39,173 bases of DNA from a virus (taxonomy: Duplodnaviria > Heunggongvirae > Uroviricota > Caudoviricetes), in IMG/VR virus record IMGVR_UViG_2563366802_000014; one strand, written 5' to 3'. The translations under genes were made by a program, and so were the position numbers. The notes below the pieces were generated by a model. The model searched no databases. It was not told the DNA's origin and was given only the letters and a program-made list of their open reading frames with translations. Below are positions 1 through 39,173 of this stretch, piece after piece (position 1 is the first letter of the stretch; each line of letters begins with the position of its first letter).

Positions 1-516
1 ATGAAATTTAAAAAATGTCTTCTGCCTGTAGCAATGTTAGCGTCATTCACTCTGGCAGGATGCCAGTCAAATGCTGACGATCATGCCGCCGATGTTTATC
101 AAACCGATCAACTGAATACCAAACAAGAAACTAAAACCGTTAATATTATTTCCATTCTTCCCGCAAAAGTTGCCGTAGACAACTCCCAAAATAAACGGAA
201 CGCACAAGCCTTCGGCGCGCTTATTGGCGCAGTCGCTGGCGGTGTTATCGGCCACAACGTCGGGTCTGGCAGCAATTCCGGAACGACGGCAGGTGCAGTT
301 GGCGGCGGAGCTGTAGGCGCGGCAGCGGGTTCTATGGTGAATGATAAAACCTTAGTGGAAGGTGTTTCTTTAACCTATAAGGAAGGCACCAAAGTGTATA
401 CCTCTACCCAGGTGGGTAAAGAGTGCCAGTTTACGACAGGTTTAGCCGTTGTTATTACCACGACGTATAACGAAACGCGTATTCAGCCAAATACCAAATG
501 TCCTGAAAAGAGCTAA
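1..516 (+). CDS. Host outer-membrane lipoprotein, glycine-zipper type (possibly YfgH-like)
   Basis: ORF from track; N-terminal signal peptide with lipobox LAGC; Gly/Ala-rich GxxxG-type segment (GALIGAVAGGVIGHNVG); resemblance to E. coli YfgH is from memory and unverified. Confidence 0.7.
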   Translation: MKFKKCLLPVAMLASFTLAGCQSNADDHAADVYQTDQLNTKQETKTVNIISILPAKVAVDNSQNKRNAQAFGALIGAVAGGVIGHNVGSGSNSGTTAGAVGGGAVGAAAGSMVNDKTLVEGVSLTYKEGTKVYTSTQVGKECQFTTGLAVVITTTYNETRIQPNTKCPEKS

Positions 517-531
517 TAATCAGGAGGAGTC

Positions 532-1071
532 ATGAAGAAAGTTTTTCTTTGCGCCATCTTAGCCTCCTTAAGCTATCCGGCTATCGCCTCATCATTGCAG
601 GATCAACTCTCTGCTGTCGCAGAAGCGGAACAGCAAGGTAAAAATGAAGAGCAAAGGCAGCATGACGAATGGGTCGCGGAGCGCAACAGGGAAATCCAGC
701 AAGAGAAGCAACGTCGCGCAAATGCCCAGGCCGCCGCTAACAAAAGAGCGGCAACGGCAGCGGCAAATAAGAAAGCTCGTCAGGATAAACTGGACGCCGA
801 AGCCTCTGCGGACAAAAAACGCGATCAAAGTTATGAAGATGAGCTACGCAGCTTAGAGATTCAGAAACAAAAACTGGCGCTGGCGAAAGAAGAAGCCCGC
901 GTTAAGCGAGAAAACGAATTTATCGATCAGGAACTGAAGCACAAAGCTGCGCAAACCGATGTGGTGCAATCTGAAGCTGACGCCAACAGAAATATGACTG
1001 AAGGCGGTCGCGATCTGATGAAAAGCGTGGGCAAAGCAGAAGAGAACAAATCGGACAGCTGGTTTAATTAA
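532..1071 (+). CDS. Host secreted coiled-coil protein (possibly YfgI-like)
   Basis: ORF from track; signal peptide (AIASS); highly charged Q/E/K/R-rich coiled-coil-like body; RBS AGGAGG about 8 nt upstream; identity with YfgI is from memory and unverified. Confidence 0.65.
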   Translation: MKKVFLCAILASLSYPAIASSLQDQLSAVAEAEQQGKNEEQRQHDEWVAERNREIQQEKQRRANAQAAANKRAATAAANKKARQDKLDAEASADKKRDQSYEDELRSLEIQKQKLALAKEEARVKRENEFIDQELKHKAAQTDVVQSEADANRNMTEGGRDLMKSVGKAEENKSDSWFN

Positions 1072-1110
1072 TCGATGTTAGTAACTTCAATCCTATAATT
1101 CTTGAAGATA

Positions 1111-1143
1111 AAAAACCCTCTGTAGTAACAGAGGGTTTTGTTC
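1111..1143. terminator. Rho-independent terminator, apparently bidirectional, at host-prophage boundary
   Basis: Stem CCCTCTG / CAGAGGG (1116-1122 / 1129-1135) with 6-nt loop, A-run upstream and T-run downstream. Confidence 0.6.
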
Positions 1144-1288
1144 ATTCATAGTGCAGGGTCAAATCATTCCCACTCAATTATTTACGGATACCATAACCAA
1201 TTGAGTGATAACACTTTTCCAAATCTCAATTTTCCTCGTACCGTTTTATATACCGTCACAGGAAATCAGTACCATGAAAAATGCTATG

Positions 1289-33286: not shown

Positions 33287-33871
33287 ATGAAAAGTATCCA
33301 GGACGTCCGCAGGCAAAATCTCAACGACTTGATCGACCGTGAATTCAATGGTGTTCAGACGCGGATGGCAGAAAAACTTGGAACTCAGGCAAATCTGGTA
33401 AACCGCTGGGCTCTTGGCAAGAAGGTTATCGGCGACCAGGTTGCGCGAAAAATTGAAGCTGCCGCCAATAAACCCCGTAACTGGCTTGATATCGATCGCT
33501 CGCTTTCTCAGGAAGGTTTTCAGCCTGTCGGCCCAAGCGATATTGGTCAGCTGGCAGCTCACAACCTGGAACGCTGGATGAGTGAAAGCCGCGACCTTTC
33601 AACTCAGGGAAAACTTCACCGCGCATCCGGCGTCGCCCAGGTGACAATAAGCCGCCTGTTAAACAATGAGGTCAGCGTTTCCATTTCCACCCTGGAGAAT
33701 GTTGCATCTGCATTCGGGCGTCACGGATATGAACTACTGATTCATCCGCATGACCCTGCAACTATCAACTATGACCGCTCGCGCTACGCATTGTTACCTG
33801 AAACAGAGAAGGCAAAGATCGAAAGTTACATTGAATTTGTCATCAACCAGAACGAAAAAAACAAACAATAA
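33287..33871 (+). CDS. Prophage repressor candidate, tandem-HTH protein without recognisable autocleavage domain
   Basis: N-terminal HTH (QTRMAEKLGTQANLVNRWALGKK) and a second HTH-like segment (ASGVAQVTISRLLNNEVSVSISTLENVASAFG); no Ala-Gly / Ser-Lys peptidase signature seen; divergent from Cro-like gene. Confidence 0.6.
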   Translation: MKSIQDVRRQNLNDLIDREFNGVQTRMAEKLGTQANLVNRWALGKKVIGDQVARKIEAAANKPRNWLDIDRSLSQEGFQPVGPSDIGQLAAHNLERWMSESRDLSTQGKLHRASGVAQVTISRLLNNEVSVSISTLENVASAFGRHGYELLIHPHDPATINYDRSRYALLPETEKAKIESYIEFVINQNEKNKQ

Positions 33872-33891: not shown

Positions 33892-33916
33892 AAGCCGCCT
33901 TCTGGCGGCTTTTTTA
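33892..33916 (+). terminator. Rho-independent terminator after the repressor gene
   Basis: Stem AAGCCGCC / GGCGGCTT with loop TTCT followed by a T-run. Confidence 0.7.
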
Positions 33917-33928
33917 TTGCCTATTTGA

Positions 33929-34005
33929 TTACCTAACGGGTAATTTTTTTAACTCATATCTATTGACATCAAACCAGATACGCATAATTATTACCTCAAC
34001 GGTAA
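33929..34005 (+). promoter_or_regulatory. Early-left promoter (PL-like) flanked by two perfect operator-like sites
   Basis: TTACCtaacgGGTAA (33929-33943), TTGACA at 33963-33968, AT-rich -10 region around 33983-33991, TTACCtcaacGGTAA (33991-34005). Confidence 0.6.
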
Positions 34006-34024
34006 CAGACCGAGGTAACAAGTT

Positions 34025-34177
34025 ATGCAGTGGAAAATCATCAACGGTTGGTACTGCGTTACTGCATGCGGATTCATGAGCTGGAAGTTCCGCACCTTAC
34101 AGGAAGGCATTAAGTGGGCTTTCGTCAGCAAAGAAGCTCGCGATGTGGCCAACGATAACGAGATATGGGAGGGCTGA
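34025..34177 (+). CDS. Small ORF (50 aa), first gene of the early-left operon, tentative
   Basis: Hand-translated; RBS GAGGT 9 nt upstream of ATG 34025; below the track cutoff. Confidence 0.3.
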   Translation: MQWKIINGWYCVTACGFMSWKFRTLQEGIKWAFVSKEARDVANDNEIWEG

Positions 34178-34179
34178 TA

Positions 34180-34479
34180 ATGAACGTTAATCAGCAGAAA
34201 AATCTTCAAAAAATCATGCTGGCATTCGACAAGGACTACCGCCTGTCAGAACAGCTATATGACCGACAAGTTGAACTGATTGAGAGTATCCGGCTTCATC
34301 AACTGGCATCAACTTTCGACGTTGTAACAGTTAAAGGCGTTCGCCAGGAAGTACTGGAGGCCGCTAAAGACAGTCCAGAGTTCGAAGAACTGATGGATTC
34401 CTACCGGCGCGAGGCAATGGCAATTATCGCCCGCTGGGATCTGGCTGATCAGCTTGATGGGCAGAGGGACGCGGCATGA
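34180..34479 (+). CDS. Hypothetical early protein (99 aa)
   Basis: ATG 34180 preceded by RBS GGGAGGG; the track ORF starts at 34165. Confidence 0.5.
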   Translation: MNVNQQKNLQKIMLAFDKDYRLSEQLYDRQVELIESIRLHQLASTFDVVTVKGVRQEVLEAAKDSPEFEELMDSYRREAMAIIARWDLADQLDGQRDAA

Positions 34480-34682
34480 AACCAACACTCCTCTCATTGC
34501 TGCGAGGTGGAAAACACAGCATCCGAGATATGGCAAAGATTCTTGGTATCTCAAGATCGAAGGTTTCTTGGTTCATCGCTGAGCTTGAACGTCGCAAATG
34601 GGTAGAGGTAACCAGGAGCGCAATATATTTCCACGATGGAACCAGATCCAACAAGCAGAACGAATACAAGGTTAAGTTATGA
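34476..34682 (+). CDS. Small winged-helix / HTH DNA-binding protein (68 aa)
   Basis: HTH-like segment SIRDMAKILGISRSKVSWFIAELERRKWV; translationally coupled on both sides. Confidence 0.5.
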   Translation: MKPTLLSLLRGGKHSIRDMAKILGISRSKVSWFIAELERRKWVEVTRSAIYFHDGTRSNKQNEYKVKL

Positions 34683-35500
34683 ATACTGGCATCTATTTCG
34701 ACATCAGCAATGAGGACTACCACGCCGGTGACGGCGTGAGTAAGTCGCAACTAGACATGGTTGCCAAGAATCCGGCGCTTCTTAAATGGGTTCAGGCAGC
34801 ACCAGAAGACGAAGAGAAAAAGTCTGCACTGGATATGGGAACCGCATTGCACTGTCTGCTTCTGGAGCCTGGAGAGTTCGACAAACGCTTCATTGTTTCA
34901 CCGAAATTCGATCGTCGGACGAAACAAGGTAAAGCTGACGAAGAGGCATTTCTTCGTGATGTGGCGGATATGGGGATTACGGTACTTGATGCCGAGCAGT
35001 GGCGGAAACTGGAGCTGATGCGTGATAGCGCAATGGCTCACCCGGCGGCACGCTGGATGCTGGAAGCACCTGGTTACTGCGAAGCATCAATGTACTGGAA
35101 CGATGAAGATACTGGTGAGTTGTGCCGCATTCGTCCAGACAAATGGCTGAACGAGCACAACGTGATCGTCGACGTGAAAAAGGTTGCAGATATGGACCGT
35201 TTTGCACGCCACATCGAGGAATTCCGCTACCACGTGCAGGACGCAATGTACCGCGAAGGCGCAATGAGGGTTACTGGTCAGCCGCATGGTTTTTTCTTTC
35301 TTGCCGTGAGCGAAAGCATTGATTGTGGTCGGTATCCGGTACGCGTGTTCGAGCTGGATGCGCCGGATGTCGATGCCGGGCACGCTCTGTTCCGCCGGGA
35401 TCTGAATACCTATCACGAATGCCGCATCAATGATGAATGGGGCGGCGTGGAAATTATTAAACGCCCTGACTGGGCACGTAAACAGGATATGTACGTATGA
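34679..35500 (+). CDS. Recombination exonuclease, RecE C-terminal-domain-like (PD-(D/E)XK)
   Basis: Motifs GIYFDISNEDYHAG, YHVQDAMY and DCGRYPV match my recollection of the RecE nuclease domain. Confidence 0.7.
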   Translation: MNTGIYFDISNEDYHAGDGVSKSQLDMVAKNPALLKWVQAAPEDEEKKSALDMGTALHCLLLEPGEFDKRFIVSPKFDRRTKQGKADEEAFLRDVADMGITVLDAEQWRKLELMRDSAMAHPAARWMLEAPGYCEASMYWNDEDTGELCRIRPDKWLNEHNVIVDVKKVADMDRFARHIEEFRYHVQDAMYREGAMRVTGQPHGFFFLAVSESIDCGRYPVRVFELDAPDVDAGHALFRRDLNTYHECRINDEWGGVEIIKRPDWARKQDMYV

Positions 35501-36378
35501 GCAATGATATCGCAATCACATCACAACCAGGCGCAACTGTAGGTACTGCTGCGGCAATCTTCAGCCCGGAGGGCATGAATCAACTGGTGCGTTTCGCGGA
35601 GTTGATGTCACAAAGCAAAGCGACTGTACCGAAACATCTTGAAGGCAAACCTGCCGATTGTCTGGCGGTGACCATGCAGGCGGCACAGTGGGGAATGAAC
35701 CCTTTCGCCGTGGCGCAGAAAACGCATGTGGTAAACGGAACGTTAGGCTACGAAGCACAGTTGGTAAATGCGGTCGTATCCTCTTCCAGCCTGCTAGCGA
35801 CACGCCTGAATTATCGCTGGAGCGGTGACTGGTCGAATGTTAACGGCAAAACAGATAAATCACCGAATCTGACGGTAACTGTGTCAGCAGTTCTTAAAGG
35901 AGAAGCAGAACCCCGTGAGCTTACCATCAGTATGGCGCAAGCCGGAGTGCGTAACTCTCCATTGTGGGAACAGGATCCGCGCCAGCAACTTGCCTATCTT
36001 TGCACGAAACGATGGGCTCGCCTGCACGCTCCTGATGTACTTCTTGGTGTTTACACCCCTGACGAATTACAGGAAACGGCACCGCGCGTTGAGCGAGACA
36101 TTACTCCGCAAACAACTACTGCTGCGGGAATGAACAGTCTGATCAACGCTAAACCAGTGAAAAAGCCTGATGAGCAAACGCGTAAAGCGGATAGCCGTGA
36201 TCCAGAAGAAATGCTGATGGCCTTTACCAGCGCAGCGATGAATTACAGCACTGTCTCCGAACTGGATAAGGCTTACAAATACATTGCACAAAAACTTTCA
36301 GATGATGACGAACTGCTGGCAAAAGCCACCGACGTTTACAGCGTTCGTCGGGAAGAATTAAACGAAACATCTATGTAA
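35497..36378 (+). CDS. Single-strand annealing protein, Red-beta (Bet)-like
   Basis: By-eye similarity to lambda Bet (GMNPF, PLWEQDPRQQLAYLCTKRWARL, ERDITP); coupled to the exonuclease gene. Confidence 0.65.
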   Translation: MSNDIAITSQPGATVGTAAAIFSPEGMNQLVRFAELMSQSKATVPKHLEGKPADCLAVTMQAAQWGMNPFAVAQKTHVVNGTLGYEAQLVNAVVSSSSLLATRLNYRWSGDWSNVNGKTDKSPNLTVTVSAVLKGEAEPRELTISMAQAGVRNSPLWEQDPRQQLAYLCTKRWARLHAPDVLLGVYTPDELQETAPRVERDITPQTTTAAGMNSLINAKPVKKPDEQTRKADSRDPEEMLMAFTSAAMNYSTVSELDKAYKYIAQKLSDDDELLAKATDVYSVRREELNETSM

Positions 36379-36427
36379 CCACCACCGCGGCGCCACGCGC
36401 GCCGCACTGCAACCAAGAGAGGTATTT

Positions 36428-36676
36428 ATGAAAGGTGCATTAGGTAAGAAGGAACTCCTGGCGGTGGTGCCACTGTCATGGAGCACTATCGACCGTATGG
36501 AGCGCGCAGGTGAATTTCCTAAACGCTGGTATATCACTGACAAACGCTGCGCATGGAACCGTGACGAAGTTGAGCGTTGGCTTGATGAACGTCAGGCAGC
36601 AAGCCCGGCAGAGTTCCAGGGTAAAAAACCTCCTGTTCAGCAACGTGTATATCGTCCCGTGAGCAACGCTGCATGA
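36428..36676 (+). CDS. AlpA-like DNA-binding protein, possible excisionase or regulator
   Basis: Segment LSWSTIDRMERAGEFPKRWYITDKRCAWNRDEVERWL resembles the AlpA/Xis-type HTH family. Confidence 0.6.
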   Translation: MKGALGKKELLAVVPLSWSTIDRMERAGEFPKRWYITDKRCAWNRDEVERWLDERQAASPAEFQGKKPPVQQRVYRPVSNAA

Positions 36677-36833
36677 GTGCGCTGCTAAGGCACTGGATCA
36701 AATGGTCAGGATGGTACTTATTCCTGGCCTCTGTTTCAGCATGGCTTTATCTGCTGGCATTAATTTTCAGAGAGGGTTGGATTAAGTGAGAAAGTTAAGC
36801 CGACTTGAAAAATATCACATGAATAAGGTTTCA

Positions 36834-37085
36834 ATGCGCAGTCCGTCAAAGATTGTCGCCGTTACTCCTGCGGCGATAGAGATCGAAAAACGCGCGATTG
36901 AAAGAGAGAAAAAAGGGCAGTTCCGCATTGCCGCTCACCTTTGGCTTCAGTGTATGGATGTTGCTTCTGGTGATGTTGAGCGTGCAAGGATCGCGGTTCG
37001 CAGGGACCAATGTATCACAAAAGGTAACGGCCTTCGCCGTGGAGACTATAGCGGTATAGGATGTTGCGGGGTGGTTTGTGACTAA
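36834..37085 (+). CDS. PerC-like small transcriptional regulator, tentative
   Basis: Start set at ATG 36834 with RBS AAGGT (track start is GTG 36786); segment FRIAAHLWLQCMDVASGDVERARIAVRRDQC resembles PerC-type proteins from memory. Confidence 0.4.
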   Translation: MRSPSKIVAVTPAAIEIEKRAIEREKKGQFRIAAHLWLQCMDVASGDVERARIAVRRDQCITKGNGLRRGDYSGIGCCGVVCD

Positions 37086-37728
37086 GAAATACACACTAAT
37101 CTATGCAGATCCACCCTGGGTATACCGGGACAAAGCCGCAGATGGTAATCGCGGTGCCAGTTTTAAATATCCGGTTATGAGTGTGATGGATATCTGCCGC
37201 CTTCCTGTGTGGGATTTGGCCGATGAAAACTGTCTGTTGGCCATGTGGTGGGTGCCAACACAACCACTCGAAGCGCTAAAAGTTGTTGAAGCCTGGGGAT
37301 TCCGTCTGATGACCATGAAGGGCTTCACGTGGATAAAATGTGGTAGTCGACAACCAGATAAACTGGTTATGGGTATGGGGCACATGACTCGCGCCAATAG
37401 TGAAGATTGCCTGTTTGCGGTAAAGGGAAAACTACCTACGCGCATTAATGCAGGGATCGTTCAGTCATTTACCGCACCGCGGCTTGAGCATTCAAGAAAA
37501 CCAGATATCGTTCGTGAAAAACTTGTGCAATTGTTAGGCGATGTTTCTCGCATTGAACTGTTCGCCAGACAGACGTCTCATGGCTTCGATGTTTGGGGTA
37601 ATCAGTGCGAAGACCCGGCAGTGCAACTACACCCTGGATACGCGTTGGATATTGCCGGATTAACAAATGCATTCAGCAATGCTCCGCTGTCACCAACAGA
37701 CAACCAGGGGCGGGAGCGTGCAGCATGA
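37078..37728 (+). CDS. MT-A70 family DNA N6-adenine methyltransferase
   Basis: Hallmark DPPW motif in IYADPPWVY near the N-terminus; GTG start overlapping the previous stop. Confidence 0.8.
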   Translation: MTKKYTLIYADPPWVYRDKAADGNRGASFKYPVMSVMDICRLPVWDLADENCLLAMWWVPTQPLEALKVVEAWGFRLMTMKGFTWIKCGSRQPDKLVMGMGHMTRANSEDCLFAVKGKLPTRINAGIVQSFTAPRLEHSRKPDIVREKLVQLLGDVSRIELFARQTSHGFDVWGNQCEDPAVQLHPGYALDIAGLTNAFSNAPLSPTDNQGRERAA

Positions 37729-37919
37729 ACAGGGCATCACCAGCAGATTTAAGGAAATGCCTTGAAACTGCAAACATGCTTGCACACAGCGGGATCAGGT
37801 TTGTTCCAATTCCCGCTGTCACTGATGCTGAATTTGCAACGCTGTCAGCAATATTCGCAGACAAAATTGAATCACTGGCAGCAGAAGCCGAGATGGAAGA
37901 AAATCAGCAGAACTATTAA
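37725..37919 (+). CDS. Small hypothetical protein (64 aa)
   Basis: ATG 37725 overlaps the methyltransferase stop (ATGA); the longer track ORF from 37605 is probably not the real start. Confidence 0.45.
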   Translation: MNRASPADLRKCLETANMLAHSGIRFVPIPAVTDAEFATLSAIFADKIESLAAEAEMEENQQNY

Positions 37920-37922
37920 ACG

Positions 37923-39173
37923 TTATTCTCCCGCCATCCACTTCTCAAACTTCGACGGGGAGAACGGAATCAGATCCGTATGCTCCCCGTCAATCCAGGA
38001 ATCAATCATATCTGCCCACTGCTGCAACATGTAGGCGCGCTGTCTGGCGTATTCCGCTTTGTTATATACGGCGCGCACACCTTTCTGCTCATGTGCCAGA
38101 GCCTTTTCAATCCAGTCTGAAGGATAACCAGCCTCATGCAACAACGTACTGGCTGTACGGCGCATATCGTGTACGGTGAAGTCCTGAATATGCTCACCAT
38201 CTTCATTTATTATTTTCACCGTTCTGTCGATCAGTGAGTTCAACGCGGCATTAGATAATGGCTTCCGGAAATTGTAACGACCAGGAACCAGGTATTCACT
38301 TCCACCAGCGCACATCTGCAACCCAACCAATATATCCTGTGCTTGTTTAGGCAGGTAAATAACGTGCGCCCGGCTTCCCTTCATGCGGTCTGAAGGAATT
38401 GTCCATGTCCATTTTTTAAAATCTATTTCATCCCACGTTGCATTGGTGAATTCGCCTTTACGAACCATAGTGATAAGCACCAGCTTTAAAGCCATTTTCA
38501 TAGTGCCCATAGCACCAATGGCATCCAGCGTGCGGAAGAACAGACCAATTTCTTCTGGTGTCAGTGTTCGCTCTCGTGGTTTAAATATGGCGATAGACGA
38601 AGGTTTAATGTCAGCCGCAGGATTAAACAAACCATGACCACGGTCATTGGCATGACGGTATACGCTGCTGATGATCTCCCTGGCCTGCACTGCTGTTGCC
38701 AGGCCGCCGCGTTCGACAATCCGGTCACACAAATCACGAACCATCGATGTGGTAATTTCAGTCATCATTTTGTTGCCAAGAACCGGAAGTATGTCACGGT
38801 CGATCACCGCCTGCTTCATTGCGCGGGTACTGTCAGCCAGGATGACATGTTTCATATAACTGTCGGTATGTACCGCAAACGTCTCGGCACCACGAATCTT
38901 TTTGATACCGTCACGTTTAGCCGCAGCCGGTGACTGGCCTGCTTTAAGCAGCTTCTTTGCAGCAATCAGTTCTTCTCGCGCTTCTGCCAGGCTGATACCG
39001 TCACGCCCATACTGCCCGATTACCAGTGTTTCGCGGCGACCGTTGATACGGTAGTCATAGCGAAACGAGACCGTGCCTGACGTAAGCACAGCTACATACA
39101 GCCCGTCACGATCGGAGACCTTGTACAGTTTGTCCTGCGGCTTGAGGTTTTTTAATTTTGTATCGGTAAGCAC
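37923..39173 (-). CDS. int: Tyrosine integrase (P4-type); N-terminus at or just beyond the window edge
   Basis: C-terminal catalytic region HDMRRTASTLLHEAGYPSDWIEKALAH and a downstream Tyr in VYNKAEY; N-terminal arm-binding-like segment; ORF runs to the window end with GTG at the edge, so the true start may lie outside. Confidence 0.85.
   Translation of the reverse strand: MLTDTKLKNLKPQDKLYKVSDRDGLYVAVLTSGTVSFRYDYRINGRRETLVIGQYGRDGISLAEAREELIAAKKLLKAGQSPAAAKRDGIKKIRGAETFAVHTDSYMKHVILADSTRAMKQAVIDRDILPVLGNKMMTEITTSMVRDLCDRIVERGGLATAVQAREIISSVYRHANDRGHGLFNPAADIKPSSIAIFKPRERTLTPEEIGLFFRTLDAIGAMGTMKMALKLVLITMVRKGEFTNATWDEIDFKKWTWTIPSDRMKGSRAHVIYLPKQAQDILVGLQMCAGGSEYLVPGRYNFRKPLSNAALNSLIDRTVKIINEDGEHIQDFTVHDMRRTASTLLHEAGYPSDWIEKALAHEQKGVRAVYNKAEYARQRAYMLQQWADMIDSWIDGEHTDLIPFSPSKFEKWMAGE

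Follow-up and report, generated by a model that had tools for sequence, protein, structure and literature searches.

The stretch from position 36,428 to 39,173 of the window (the whole 39,173-nucleotide DNA of the Caudoviricetes record IMGVR_UViG_2563366802_000014) is very probably the distal part of the early-left operon of an E. coli prophage of the phiV10/epsilon15 type (genus Uetakevirus), together with a separately transcribed integrase gene (int), and the same explanation puts the prophage's insertion site at the guaA 3' end. The cluster is real and already known: reference phage genomes and hundreds of E. coli genomes carry annotations of it. Six ORFs make up the stretch:

36428..36676, + strand, AlpA-family helix-turn-helix protein, 82 aa, ATG to TGA (PF05930)
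36673..36789, + strand, 38-aa ORF with one hydrophobic helix (phrog_17484)
36786..37085, + strand, PerC-family small regulator, 99 aa from GTG (PF06069)
37078..37728, + strand, MT-A70 (class beta) N6-adenine methyltransferase, putative activity, 216 aa (PF05063, DPPW)
37725..37919, + strand, homologue of lambda Orf63 (DUF1382), 64 aa, last gene of the operon (PF07131)
37923..39173, − strand, P4-type tyrosine integrase, 416 aa, GTG start at the window's last base

Prophage identity and gene layout

Phage phiV10 (NC_007804) matches the whole stretch at 98.2% nucleotide identity over 2874 nt, corresponding to its genes p31–p36, and related nucleotide matches at 80–81% were found in epsilon15 and Tyrion. 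Among complete E. coli genomes, 569 of 5426 carry the stretch, with guaA adjoining and PGAP annotation alike. A 17-bp att core, AATCATTCCCACTCAAT, lies at window positions 1162–1178, with a second copy past int in the closest genome. The same gene order and convergent int recur in prophages of Citrobacter, Klebsiella, Kluyvera, Superficieibacter, Scandinavium and Pseudescherichia, and the cluster is conserved across Uetakevirus phages. It resembles phiV10 (p36–p31) and epsilon15 in gene content, order, orientation and the convergent integrase, and the AlpA, 38-aa, PerC and methyltransferase proteins are 76–85% identical to their epsilon15 counterparts. Epsilon15 differs in having an additional small ORF ahead of the methyltransferase gene and an unrelated 60-aa gene in place of the Orf63-like gene, followed by about 150 nt before int; in PAS61, a NinI-type phosphatase occupies this slot. 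The epsilon15 "transacetylase repressor" was considered as an Orf63-like homologue and rejected, since no homology was found between the two proteins, and the slot next to int therefore holds unrelated genes.

Recomputing the ORFs, start and stop codons and junctions reproduced the positions and codon geometry of the first-pass annotation in every checkable detail. The operon junctions overlap in turn as ATGA (alpA-like stop with the start of the 38-aa ORF), GTGA (38-aa ORF stop with the PerC-like GTG start), GTGACTAA (an 8-nt overlap of the PerC-like stop with the GTG start of the methyltransferase gene) and ATGA (methyltransferase stop with the start of the 64-aa ORF), the last two being the overlaps already described on either side of the methyltransferase gene. 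The AlpA-like, PerC-like, MT-A70 and integrase family assignments also stand, all with profile matches above the Pfam curated thresholds and well outside what chance would give. The operon had been said to end in the MT-A70 gene, which is wrong: the Orf63-like gene comes last.

Candidate promoter region and expected expression

A candidate control region precedes these genes:

33892-33911, + strand, terminator-like hairpin 3' of the repressor gene (consensus scan)
33929-33945, + strand, operator-like palindrome ATTACCTAACGGGTAAT (consensus scan, sequence read directly)
33963-33991, + strand, promoter-like site TTGACA-17-AATTAT (consensus scan, sequence read directly)
33990-34006, + strand, operator-like palindrome ATTACCTCAACGGTAAC (consensus scan, sequence read directly)

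The palindromes flanking the promoter-like site have the form TTACC-N-GGTAA, and the epsilon15 annotation treats similar TTACC..GGTAA sequences as repressor binding sites. Positions 33892..34006 (+ strand) probably form the beginning of the early-left operon to which the cluster belongs, and "early-left operon" was a fair label, the genes lying downstream of the repressor gene, the terminator and the operator-flanked promoter-like site. No terminator-like site was found on the + strand from 33921 to 38939; this absence, like the promoter and operators, is called from consensus scans. Upon induction or infection, transcription would begin at the operator-controlled promoter near 33963-33991, and the transcript would pass the exonuclease and RecT genes before reaching the five tightly packed genes, whose translation is expected to be coupled through their stop/start overlaps.

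Because it lies behind an operator-flanked promoter, the cluster should be silent, or repressed, in lysogens, and a lysogen methylome without a new motif would therefore not refute methyltransferase activity. The methylome of an uninduced lysogen would be uninformative on this point; DNA from virions or from a plasmid clone would be the sample to use.

AlpA-like protein and 38-aa ORF

The AlpA-like protein only just exceeds the threshold in the Pfam profile search (PF05930, 24.2 bits against a cut-off of 21), matches phrog_66 "excisionase and transcriptional regulator" (E = 2e-16) and is 85% identical to epsilon15 gp33. A P4-type integrase (Arm-DNA-bind_3) is encoded 1.2 kb downstream, a pairing conserved in eight other species, and AlpA homologues are known as excisionases or int activators alongside such integrases (PMC9376610). 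From its sequence, the protein is most likely a phage excisionase (recombination directionality factor) working with the integrase; possibly it is an activator of int, too or instead. The two proteins together would drive excision, possibly with higher int expression as well. AlpA of CP4-57, Hef of HPI and AlpA of GIsul2 are likewise PF05930 helix-turn-helix proteins encoded with a P4-type integrase, and GIsul2 is also inserted at guaA (PMC9376610). Their genes sit directly beside int, whereas here the gene lies in the early operon, 1.2 kb from int and converging with it.

The 38-aa ORF, which the first-pass annotation did not contain, is p35 in the phiV10 annotation. It is matched over its full length by phrog_17484 "membrane protein" (E = 2.5e-26), was found by tblastn in seven of eight related prophages from other species (54–82% identity) and is conserved across the genus. 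As the second coupled gene it would supply a 38-aa membrane peptide.

PerC-like regulator

The HMM search proposed earlier for the PerC-like protein returned a family match above the curated threshold (PF06069, 30.1 bits against 22.6), covering only profile positions 5–50 of 90, the N-terminal half of the model. The protein is matched over its full length (residues 1–99) by phrog_868 "transcriptional activator" (E = 5e-61), and PGAP names the gene PerC family regulator. Some annotations start it at a later ATG, 36819 or 36834; N-terminal conservation beginning at residue 1 in epsilon15 and other species supports the long GTG-start form. Membership of the ANR (AraC negative regulator) family, NF033650, was also considered and rejected, the score being 23.6 bits against a cut-off of 32.

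The third coupled gene would encode a PerC-family small regulator, and the suggested effect on host genes is plausible. PerC of EPEC and PchA–E of EHEC are also small proteins encoded on a prophage or plasmid and scoring above threshold for Pfam PerC, and Pch genes too are carried by horizontally acquired elements (PMC7369912). The present protein differs in matching only the N-terminal half of the model, in its sub-threshold ANR resemblance and in having hosts without LEE.

MT-A70 methyltransferase

The fourth protein aligns with the entire PF05063 profile (1–172 of 172, on residues 5–176; E = 1.1e-22, 81.2 bits against 23.9). The DPPW motif noticed in the first pass is present at residues 11–14; this motif IV lies N-terminal to the AdoMet-binding segment, which is the class beta motif order, and the segment IELFARQ...WGNQ at 159–176 aligns with its counterpart in ciliate MT-A70 chains. 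Among solved structures, ciliate MT-A70 family proteins come closest (7f4r, 2.3e-13), followed by METTL3 (4e-6). In PADLOC, the methyltransferase matched generic Type II methyltransferase models only ("Type II methyltransferase", 4.6e-78), and the other cluster proteins had no match. Homologues in epsilon15 and SPN1S end at 192–197 aa, and the enzyme is, by prediction, a catalytic domain with a dispensable C-terminal tail.

No second MT-A70 copy or partner subunit was found in the window, and no restriction partner either there or in 28 related loci. The gene is flanked by the PerC-like and Orf63-like genes; in other members of the Enterobacterales, homologues with 64–74% identity occupy different prophage regions, beside RusA, NinB, SSB or DnaC-like genes, with an HNH homing-type nuclease also among the neighbours in other loci. 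None of the examined neighbours of these homologues was identified as a restriction enzyme gene, and the methyltransferase is an orphan (solitary) enzyme. In the searchable literature, we found no experiments that address this methyltransferase, the sequence it targets or its timing. The proposal that it shields phage DNA from restriction is plausible: a stand-alone MT-A70 enzyme most likely methylates replicating phage DNA, and progeny would thus escape adenine-methylation-sensitive restriction in the next host. As a counter-point, a catalytic-domain-only MT-A70 may not be a classical site-specific anti-restriction enzyme.

With METTL3, ciliate MTA1 and the bacterial and phage MT-A70 lineage, the protein shares the DPPW catalytic domain, the C-terminal ELFAR...WGNQ segment and the class beta order; what sets it apart is that it is a phage-borne orphan of 216 aa, lacking both a partner subunit and additional domains. 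M.EcoGII-type enzymes are similar in being prophage beta-class adenine methyltransferases with no restriction partner and expected silence in the lysogen (PMC7544214); this likeness is drawn without sequence comparison, and the non-specific activity of M.EcoGII is not transferable to the protein studied here.

Orf63-like protein and the convergent integrase gene

The small ORF that had been left unnamed is the lambda Orf63/DUF1382 homologue. It matches PF07131 over the whole profile (1–60 of 60; E = 1.3e-30, 105.7 bits against 27) and PDB 8DSB, lambda Orf63 (E = 6e-13), with a central strand, GIRFVPIP, identical to that of lambda. As the fifth coupled gene it would supply an Orf63-like protein; in lambda, Orf63 drives development toward lysis. 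The position resembles that of lambda orf63 in the exo-xis region, in an early-left operon between the recombination genes and int, but here the gene is last and stands tail to tail with int. In lambda, int and xis are co-directional with orf63. The Orf63/DUF1382 family has been described in PMC10869804, according to which lambda Orf63 lowers the numbers of survivors and lysogens, and residues F28, V29 and P32 of its central beta-strand are intolerant of variation.

The integrase carries Arm-DNA-bind_3 (PF13356, 3.8e-20), Phage_int_M (PF22022, 4.7e-12) and Phage_integrase (PF00589, 1.5e-19) domains, matches the integrase family phrog_1 (6.5e-87) and shows HDMRR and LAH...VYNK segments in its translation; this 1251-nt gene is likewise annotated in phiV10 and E. 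coli genomes. The gene is read from the att side toward the operon, and the convergence described in the first-pass annotation was recovered on recomputation, the stops (TAA at 37917-37919 and TTA at 37923-37925) being separated by exactly 3 nt (ACG). Since no intrinsic terminator lies between the genes, early-left transcripts probably continue antisense into int unless Rho stops them, and such read-through would lower int expression in lytic growth. One further feature was predicted near this junction:

37954..37991, no strand assigned, strong hairpin in the 3' coding end of int, GACGGGGAG...CTCCCCGTC (RNA folding)

On the int-sense strand, the fold gave z = -2.97 in a 151-nt piece, and a consensus fold of 11 relatives kept the stem with a covariation term of only -0.24 kcal/mol. 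The hairpin could be an RNA element where the two transcripts meet. We do not claim RNA structure conservation there as a finding, since the stem is stable but shows almost no covariation.

Alternative readings

Four alternatives bear on individual parts of the cluster. That the tail-to-tail packing is a regulatory device, with antisense or RNase III control of the integrase like lambda sib retroregulation, seems to us somewhat unlikely. The gap between operon and int is 3 nt in the window and phiV10, 4 in Tyrion, 2 in PAS61 and -4 in SPN1S, the consensus scan placed no terminator in it, and the strong hairpin lies close by; the last ~110 nt of int show higher codon identity to three relatives (against epsilon15, 25 of 28 same-amino-acid codons match there, compared with roughly 60% elsewhere), and the epsilon15 annotation places a predicted RNase III site at the corresponding junction. 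However, epsilon15 and several other relatives have gaps of at least 140 nt, such tight convergent packing is frequent in compact genomes, and the hairpin has negligible covariation, an inner stem that is not conserved and a stem that encodes conserved residues (GE...FSP). For the AlpA-like protein, a role purely as a transcription factor that activates int or other phage genes, with no excisionase function, is improbable. CP4-57 AlpA was originally characterised as a regulator raising intA expression (cited in PMC9376610), yet Hef and similar homologues have direct excisionase activity (PMC9376610), PHROG 66 places the protein among excisionases and the cluster showed no further Xis-like gene; an excisionase remains our preferred assignment.

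The methyltransferase might instead be of low specificity, or act on ssDNA or RNA, and modify recombination or replication intermediates or transcripts in lytic growth. Consistent with this are a protein that is essentially the catalytic domain alone, an operon shared with exonuclease and RecT, solved relatives that are eukaryotic MT-A70 enzymes needing partner subunits where the window holds no partner paralogue, and the precedent of M.EcoGII, another prophage beta-class enzyme, which is sequence non-specific and also active on RNA (PMC7544214). Against it, beta-class enzymes are commonly homodimers without a separate recognition domain (PMC7544214) and the closest PADLOC model is a Type II methyltransferase, and we regard this reading as unlikely. 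Less likely again is a more far-reaching version, in which the MT-A70 enzyme, cotranscribed with the exonuclease and RecT genes, has low specificity or prefers single strands, a bacterial parallel to the preference of METTL3-METTL14 for ssDNA/RNA; residues 86–98, the patch in which the phiV10 and epsilon15 versions differ, could then set its substrate preference, and, separately, convergent early-left transcription through the conserved int hairpin could act as an antisense switch on the integrase. We give least credence to the methyltransferase and PerC-like genes being lysogenic-conversion genes, expressed from the prophage and altering host expression through epigenetic marks and a Pch-like activator. 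Prophage PerC/Pch homologues do control LEE, flagella and adhesins in EHEC (PMC7369912), and the int-adjacent slot holds cargo-like genes in relatives, one of them called a serotype-conversion gene by the epsilon15 annotators. Yet the two genes belong to a translationally coupled operon preceded by operator-like sites and a terminator, the consensus scan found no promoter-like site of their own, and both are conserved in phages of Salmonella, Enterobacter and Klebsiella, none of which are LEE-reported hosts, LEE being reported only from a few attaching-and-effacing species (PMC4332760). An early-left operon with an orphan methyltransferase and an excisionase candidate is the reading that we retain.

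Occurrence of the methyltransferase

The cluster matters little as a discovery. As a bacterial relative of the eukaryotic m6A writers, its MT-A70 enzyme is minimal, and it is very common in phages; with its target known, E. coli methylomes and phage host-range barriers would be easier to interpret. Roughly one complete E. coli genome in ten carries the enzyme, as do at least 599 viral contigs.

Gene layout and origin of the cluster

Recomputing the ORF positions resolved 36428-39173 into six ORFs with almost no non-coding DNA.

Features of the integrase-proximal cluster
36428-36676, + strand: AlpA-like, 82 aa
36673-36789, + strand: 38-aa ORF
36786-37085, + strand: PerC-like, 99 aa
37078-37728, + strand: MT-A70 methyltransferase, 216 aa
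37725-37919, + strand: Orf63-like, 64 aa
37923-39173, - strand: integrase (int), 416 aa, whose GTG start is the window's last codon

In gene order, the stop/start junctions are ATGA, GTGA, GTGACTAA and ATGA, the third being an 8-nt overlap of the PerC-like and methyltransferase genes, and 3 nt separate the convergent stops of the Orf63-like gene and int (TAA-ACG-TTA). The first-pass annotation's positions, overlapping codons and 3-nt convergent spacing were all reproduced, and each of its family calls (AlpA-like, PerC-like, MT-A70, integrase) was matched by Pfam with PHROGs in agreement. Its claim that the operon ends in the methyltransferase was incorrect, as the 64-aa ORF (37725-37919) is the last gene. 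The 38-aa ORF (36673-36789), labeled "membrane protein" in PHROGs, was absent from its description.

Phage phiV10, in which the genes are p36 to p31, shares 98.2% identity with the stretch, and epsilon15 and Tyrion share 80–81%; among 5426 complete E. coli genomes, 569 contain the stretch. In the closest of these it adjoins guaA, and the PGAP gene names agree with ours. A 17-bp att core, AATCATTCCCACTCAAT, lies at window 1162-1178, and the identical 17 bases recur ~190 nt past int in the closest genome (region L001 8875-9081), at the final guaA codons (IEWE*). The element is thus a Uetakevirus prophage with int at its right end. A 10-bp repeat, ATACCGTCAC, present on both arms, may be an arm-type integrase site. 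Window 1-1288 opens with two host-like ORFs (1-516 and 532-1071), which by K-12 gene order may be yfgH/yfgI.

Every part falls into a known family, and reference genomes already carry annotation for the whole cluster. The AlpA, 38-aa ORF, PerC and methyltransferase of this prophage are 76–85% identical to those of epsilon15. The order AlpA, 38-aa ORF, PerC, (variable), methyltransferase, (variable), convergent int is also found in Tyrion, SPN1S and PAS61, as well as in prophages of Superficieibacter, Pseudescherichia, Scandinavium, Citrobacter, Kluyvera and Klebsiella.

AlpA-like and PerC-like proteins

The 82-aa protein matched Pfam AlpA (PF05930, 24.2 bits against a cut-off of 21) and is labeled "excisionase and transcriptional regulator" in PHROGs. 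Where AlpA-family proteins are paired with P4-type integrases, as with AlpA of CP4-57, Hef and AlpA of GIsul2, they serve as excisionases or increase int expression (PMC9376610). GIsul2, a genomic island that encodes an integrase as well as alpA, likewise uses guaA as its insertion site (PMC9376610). By analogy, and because the cluster holds no second Xis-like gene, the recombination directionality factor is most likely the 82-aa protein.

An HMM search upheld the PerC-like call for the 99-aa protein (PF06069, 30.1 bits against a cut-off of 22.6, spanning profile positions 5–50 of 90), and the PHROGs match, labeled "transcriptional activator", spans residues 1–99. The ANR (AraC negative regulator) family was rejected at 23.6 bits, below its cut-off of 32; this sub-threshold resemblance covers the same residues (35–77) as the PerC match. 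Annotations place the start of the gene at three different codons, of which the GTG at 36786 is favored since the protein is conserved from residue 1. In EPEC and EHEC, PerC and Pch proteins control LEE as well as flagella and adhesins (PMC7369912). Because hosts of the phage family also include Salmonella, Enterobacter and Klebsiella, we speculate that LEE control is no likelier than a role that is general or internal to the phage, such as countering H-NS silencing.

An Orf63-like gene in a variable slot next to the integrase

The 64-aa protein, left unnamed in the first-pass annotation, matched DUF1382 over its full length (PF07131, E = 1.3e-30) and, among solved structures, PDB 8DSB (6e-13). 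That entry was solved by NMR and shows lambda Orf63, a dimer-forming early protein from the exo-xis region (PMC10869804). On the strength of the 8DSB match, the 64-aa protein is an Orf63 homologue. Its RFVPIP strand, reported to be intolerant to change, is identical in lambda Orf63, whose expression leads to fewer survivors and lysogens (PMC10869804). The slot between methyltransferase and int holds the Orf63-like gene in the window and phiV10, a NinI-type phosphatase in PAS61 (L005 2926-3585), an unrelated 60-aa gene annotated "transacetylase repressor" in epsilon15 (L003 4558-4740) and hypothetical ORFs in two further relatives (L004 3320-3526, L006 3801-3980), and is apparently empty in the Scandinavium locus. 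No similarity was found between the epsilon15 60-aa gene and the Orf63-like protein. The slot behaves as a cargo insertion point.

The integrase carries Arm-DNA-bind_3, Phage_int_M and Phage_integrase domains in Pfam and matches phrog_1. Tight 3'-3' packing is common yet not universal, since the gap runs from 3 nt in the window and phiV10, 4 nt in Tyrion, 2 nt in PAS61 and -4 nt in SPN1S to ~150 nt in epsilon15 and more in some other relatives. No intrinsic terminator lies between the Orf63-like gene and int, so read-through from the cluster would be antisense to int. A strong predicted hairpin (37954-37991) sits in the 3' coding end of int, and the final ~110 nt of the gene have more identical codons against three diverged relatives than the rest. 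Across 11 relatives the hairpin showed almost no covariation, its inner stem is not conserved, and conserved residues are encoded there. Int may be under control of an antisense or RNase III type.

An orphan methyltransferase

The 216-aa protein, flanked by the PerC-like and Orf63-like genes, carries the entire MT-A70 domain on residues 5–176 (PF05063, E = 1.1e-22) and little else; PHROGs labels it "DNA methyltransferase". Its closest solved structures are ciliate MT-A70 family proteins (7f4r, 2.3e-13), with METTL3 at 4e-6, and the window has no further MT-A70 copy. Homologues in 19 other species-level loci, mostly 64–78% identical, occupy different prophage regions, where the neighbors checked were RusA, NinB, SSB, a DnaC-like loader and an HNH homing-type nuclease, with no restriction enzyme recognized among them. 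The methyltransferase is an orphan. As with other phage orphan adenine methyltransferases, its role is most likely to shield progeny DNA from restriction, as first proposed.

Residues 86–98 (37333-37371) form a 13-residue patch that differs wholly between phiV10-type and epsilon15-type enzymes, which are 75–80% identical outside it. Only the phiV10 and Tyrion versions have the C-terminal 24 residues (37657-37728), which those of epsilon15 and SPN1S lack. Both differences may bear on target choice. The searchable literature yielded no report of the target sequence of this very common minimal MT-A70 enzyme.

Expression of the cluster

Several elements lie upstream of the cluster, given here in order.

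Upstream elements
33287-33871: repressor gene
33892-33911: terminator-like hairpin after the repressor gene
33963-33991: predicted promoter-like site

Two TTACC-N-GGTAA palindromes bracket the promoter-like site, and similar sites in epsilon15 are annotated as repressor binding sites. The region 33892-34006, ahead of the first early-left ORF, is probably the operator/promoter controlling the whole cluster. From the promoter-like site to 37919 all genes are on the + strand, mostly with overlapping stops and starts, and a scan of that strand found no terminator-like site before 38939. Given these upstream elements and the terminator-free run, the cluster is most likely expressed only upon induction or infection. 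It would then probably be off in the lysogen, so the sequencing of uninduced lysogens proposed earlier for methylation could yield a false negative; M.EcoGII, a prophage methyltransferase silent in its host, is a precedent (PMC7544214).

The alpA-like gene lies 49 nt from recT, and the gap contains a GC-rich 7-bp stem-loop lacking a T run (36387-36405, GCGGCGC-CACGC-GCGCCGC); at the equivalent place, the epsilon15 annotation marks a stem-loop as "transcriptional pausing". Exonuclease and RecT are two genes with an ATGA overlap (34679-35500, 35497-36378) in the window and the closest E. coli genome; the phiV10 RefSeq record has a single 1761-nt fusion gene (L002 2319-4079, compare window 34679-36378), which is either a real fusion or a frameshift in the record.
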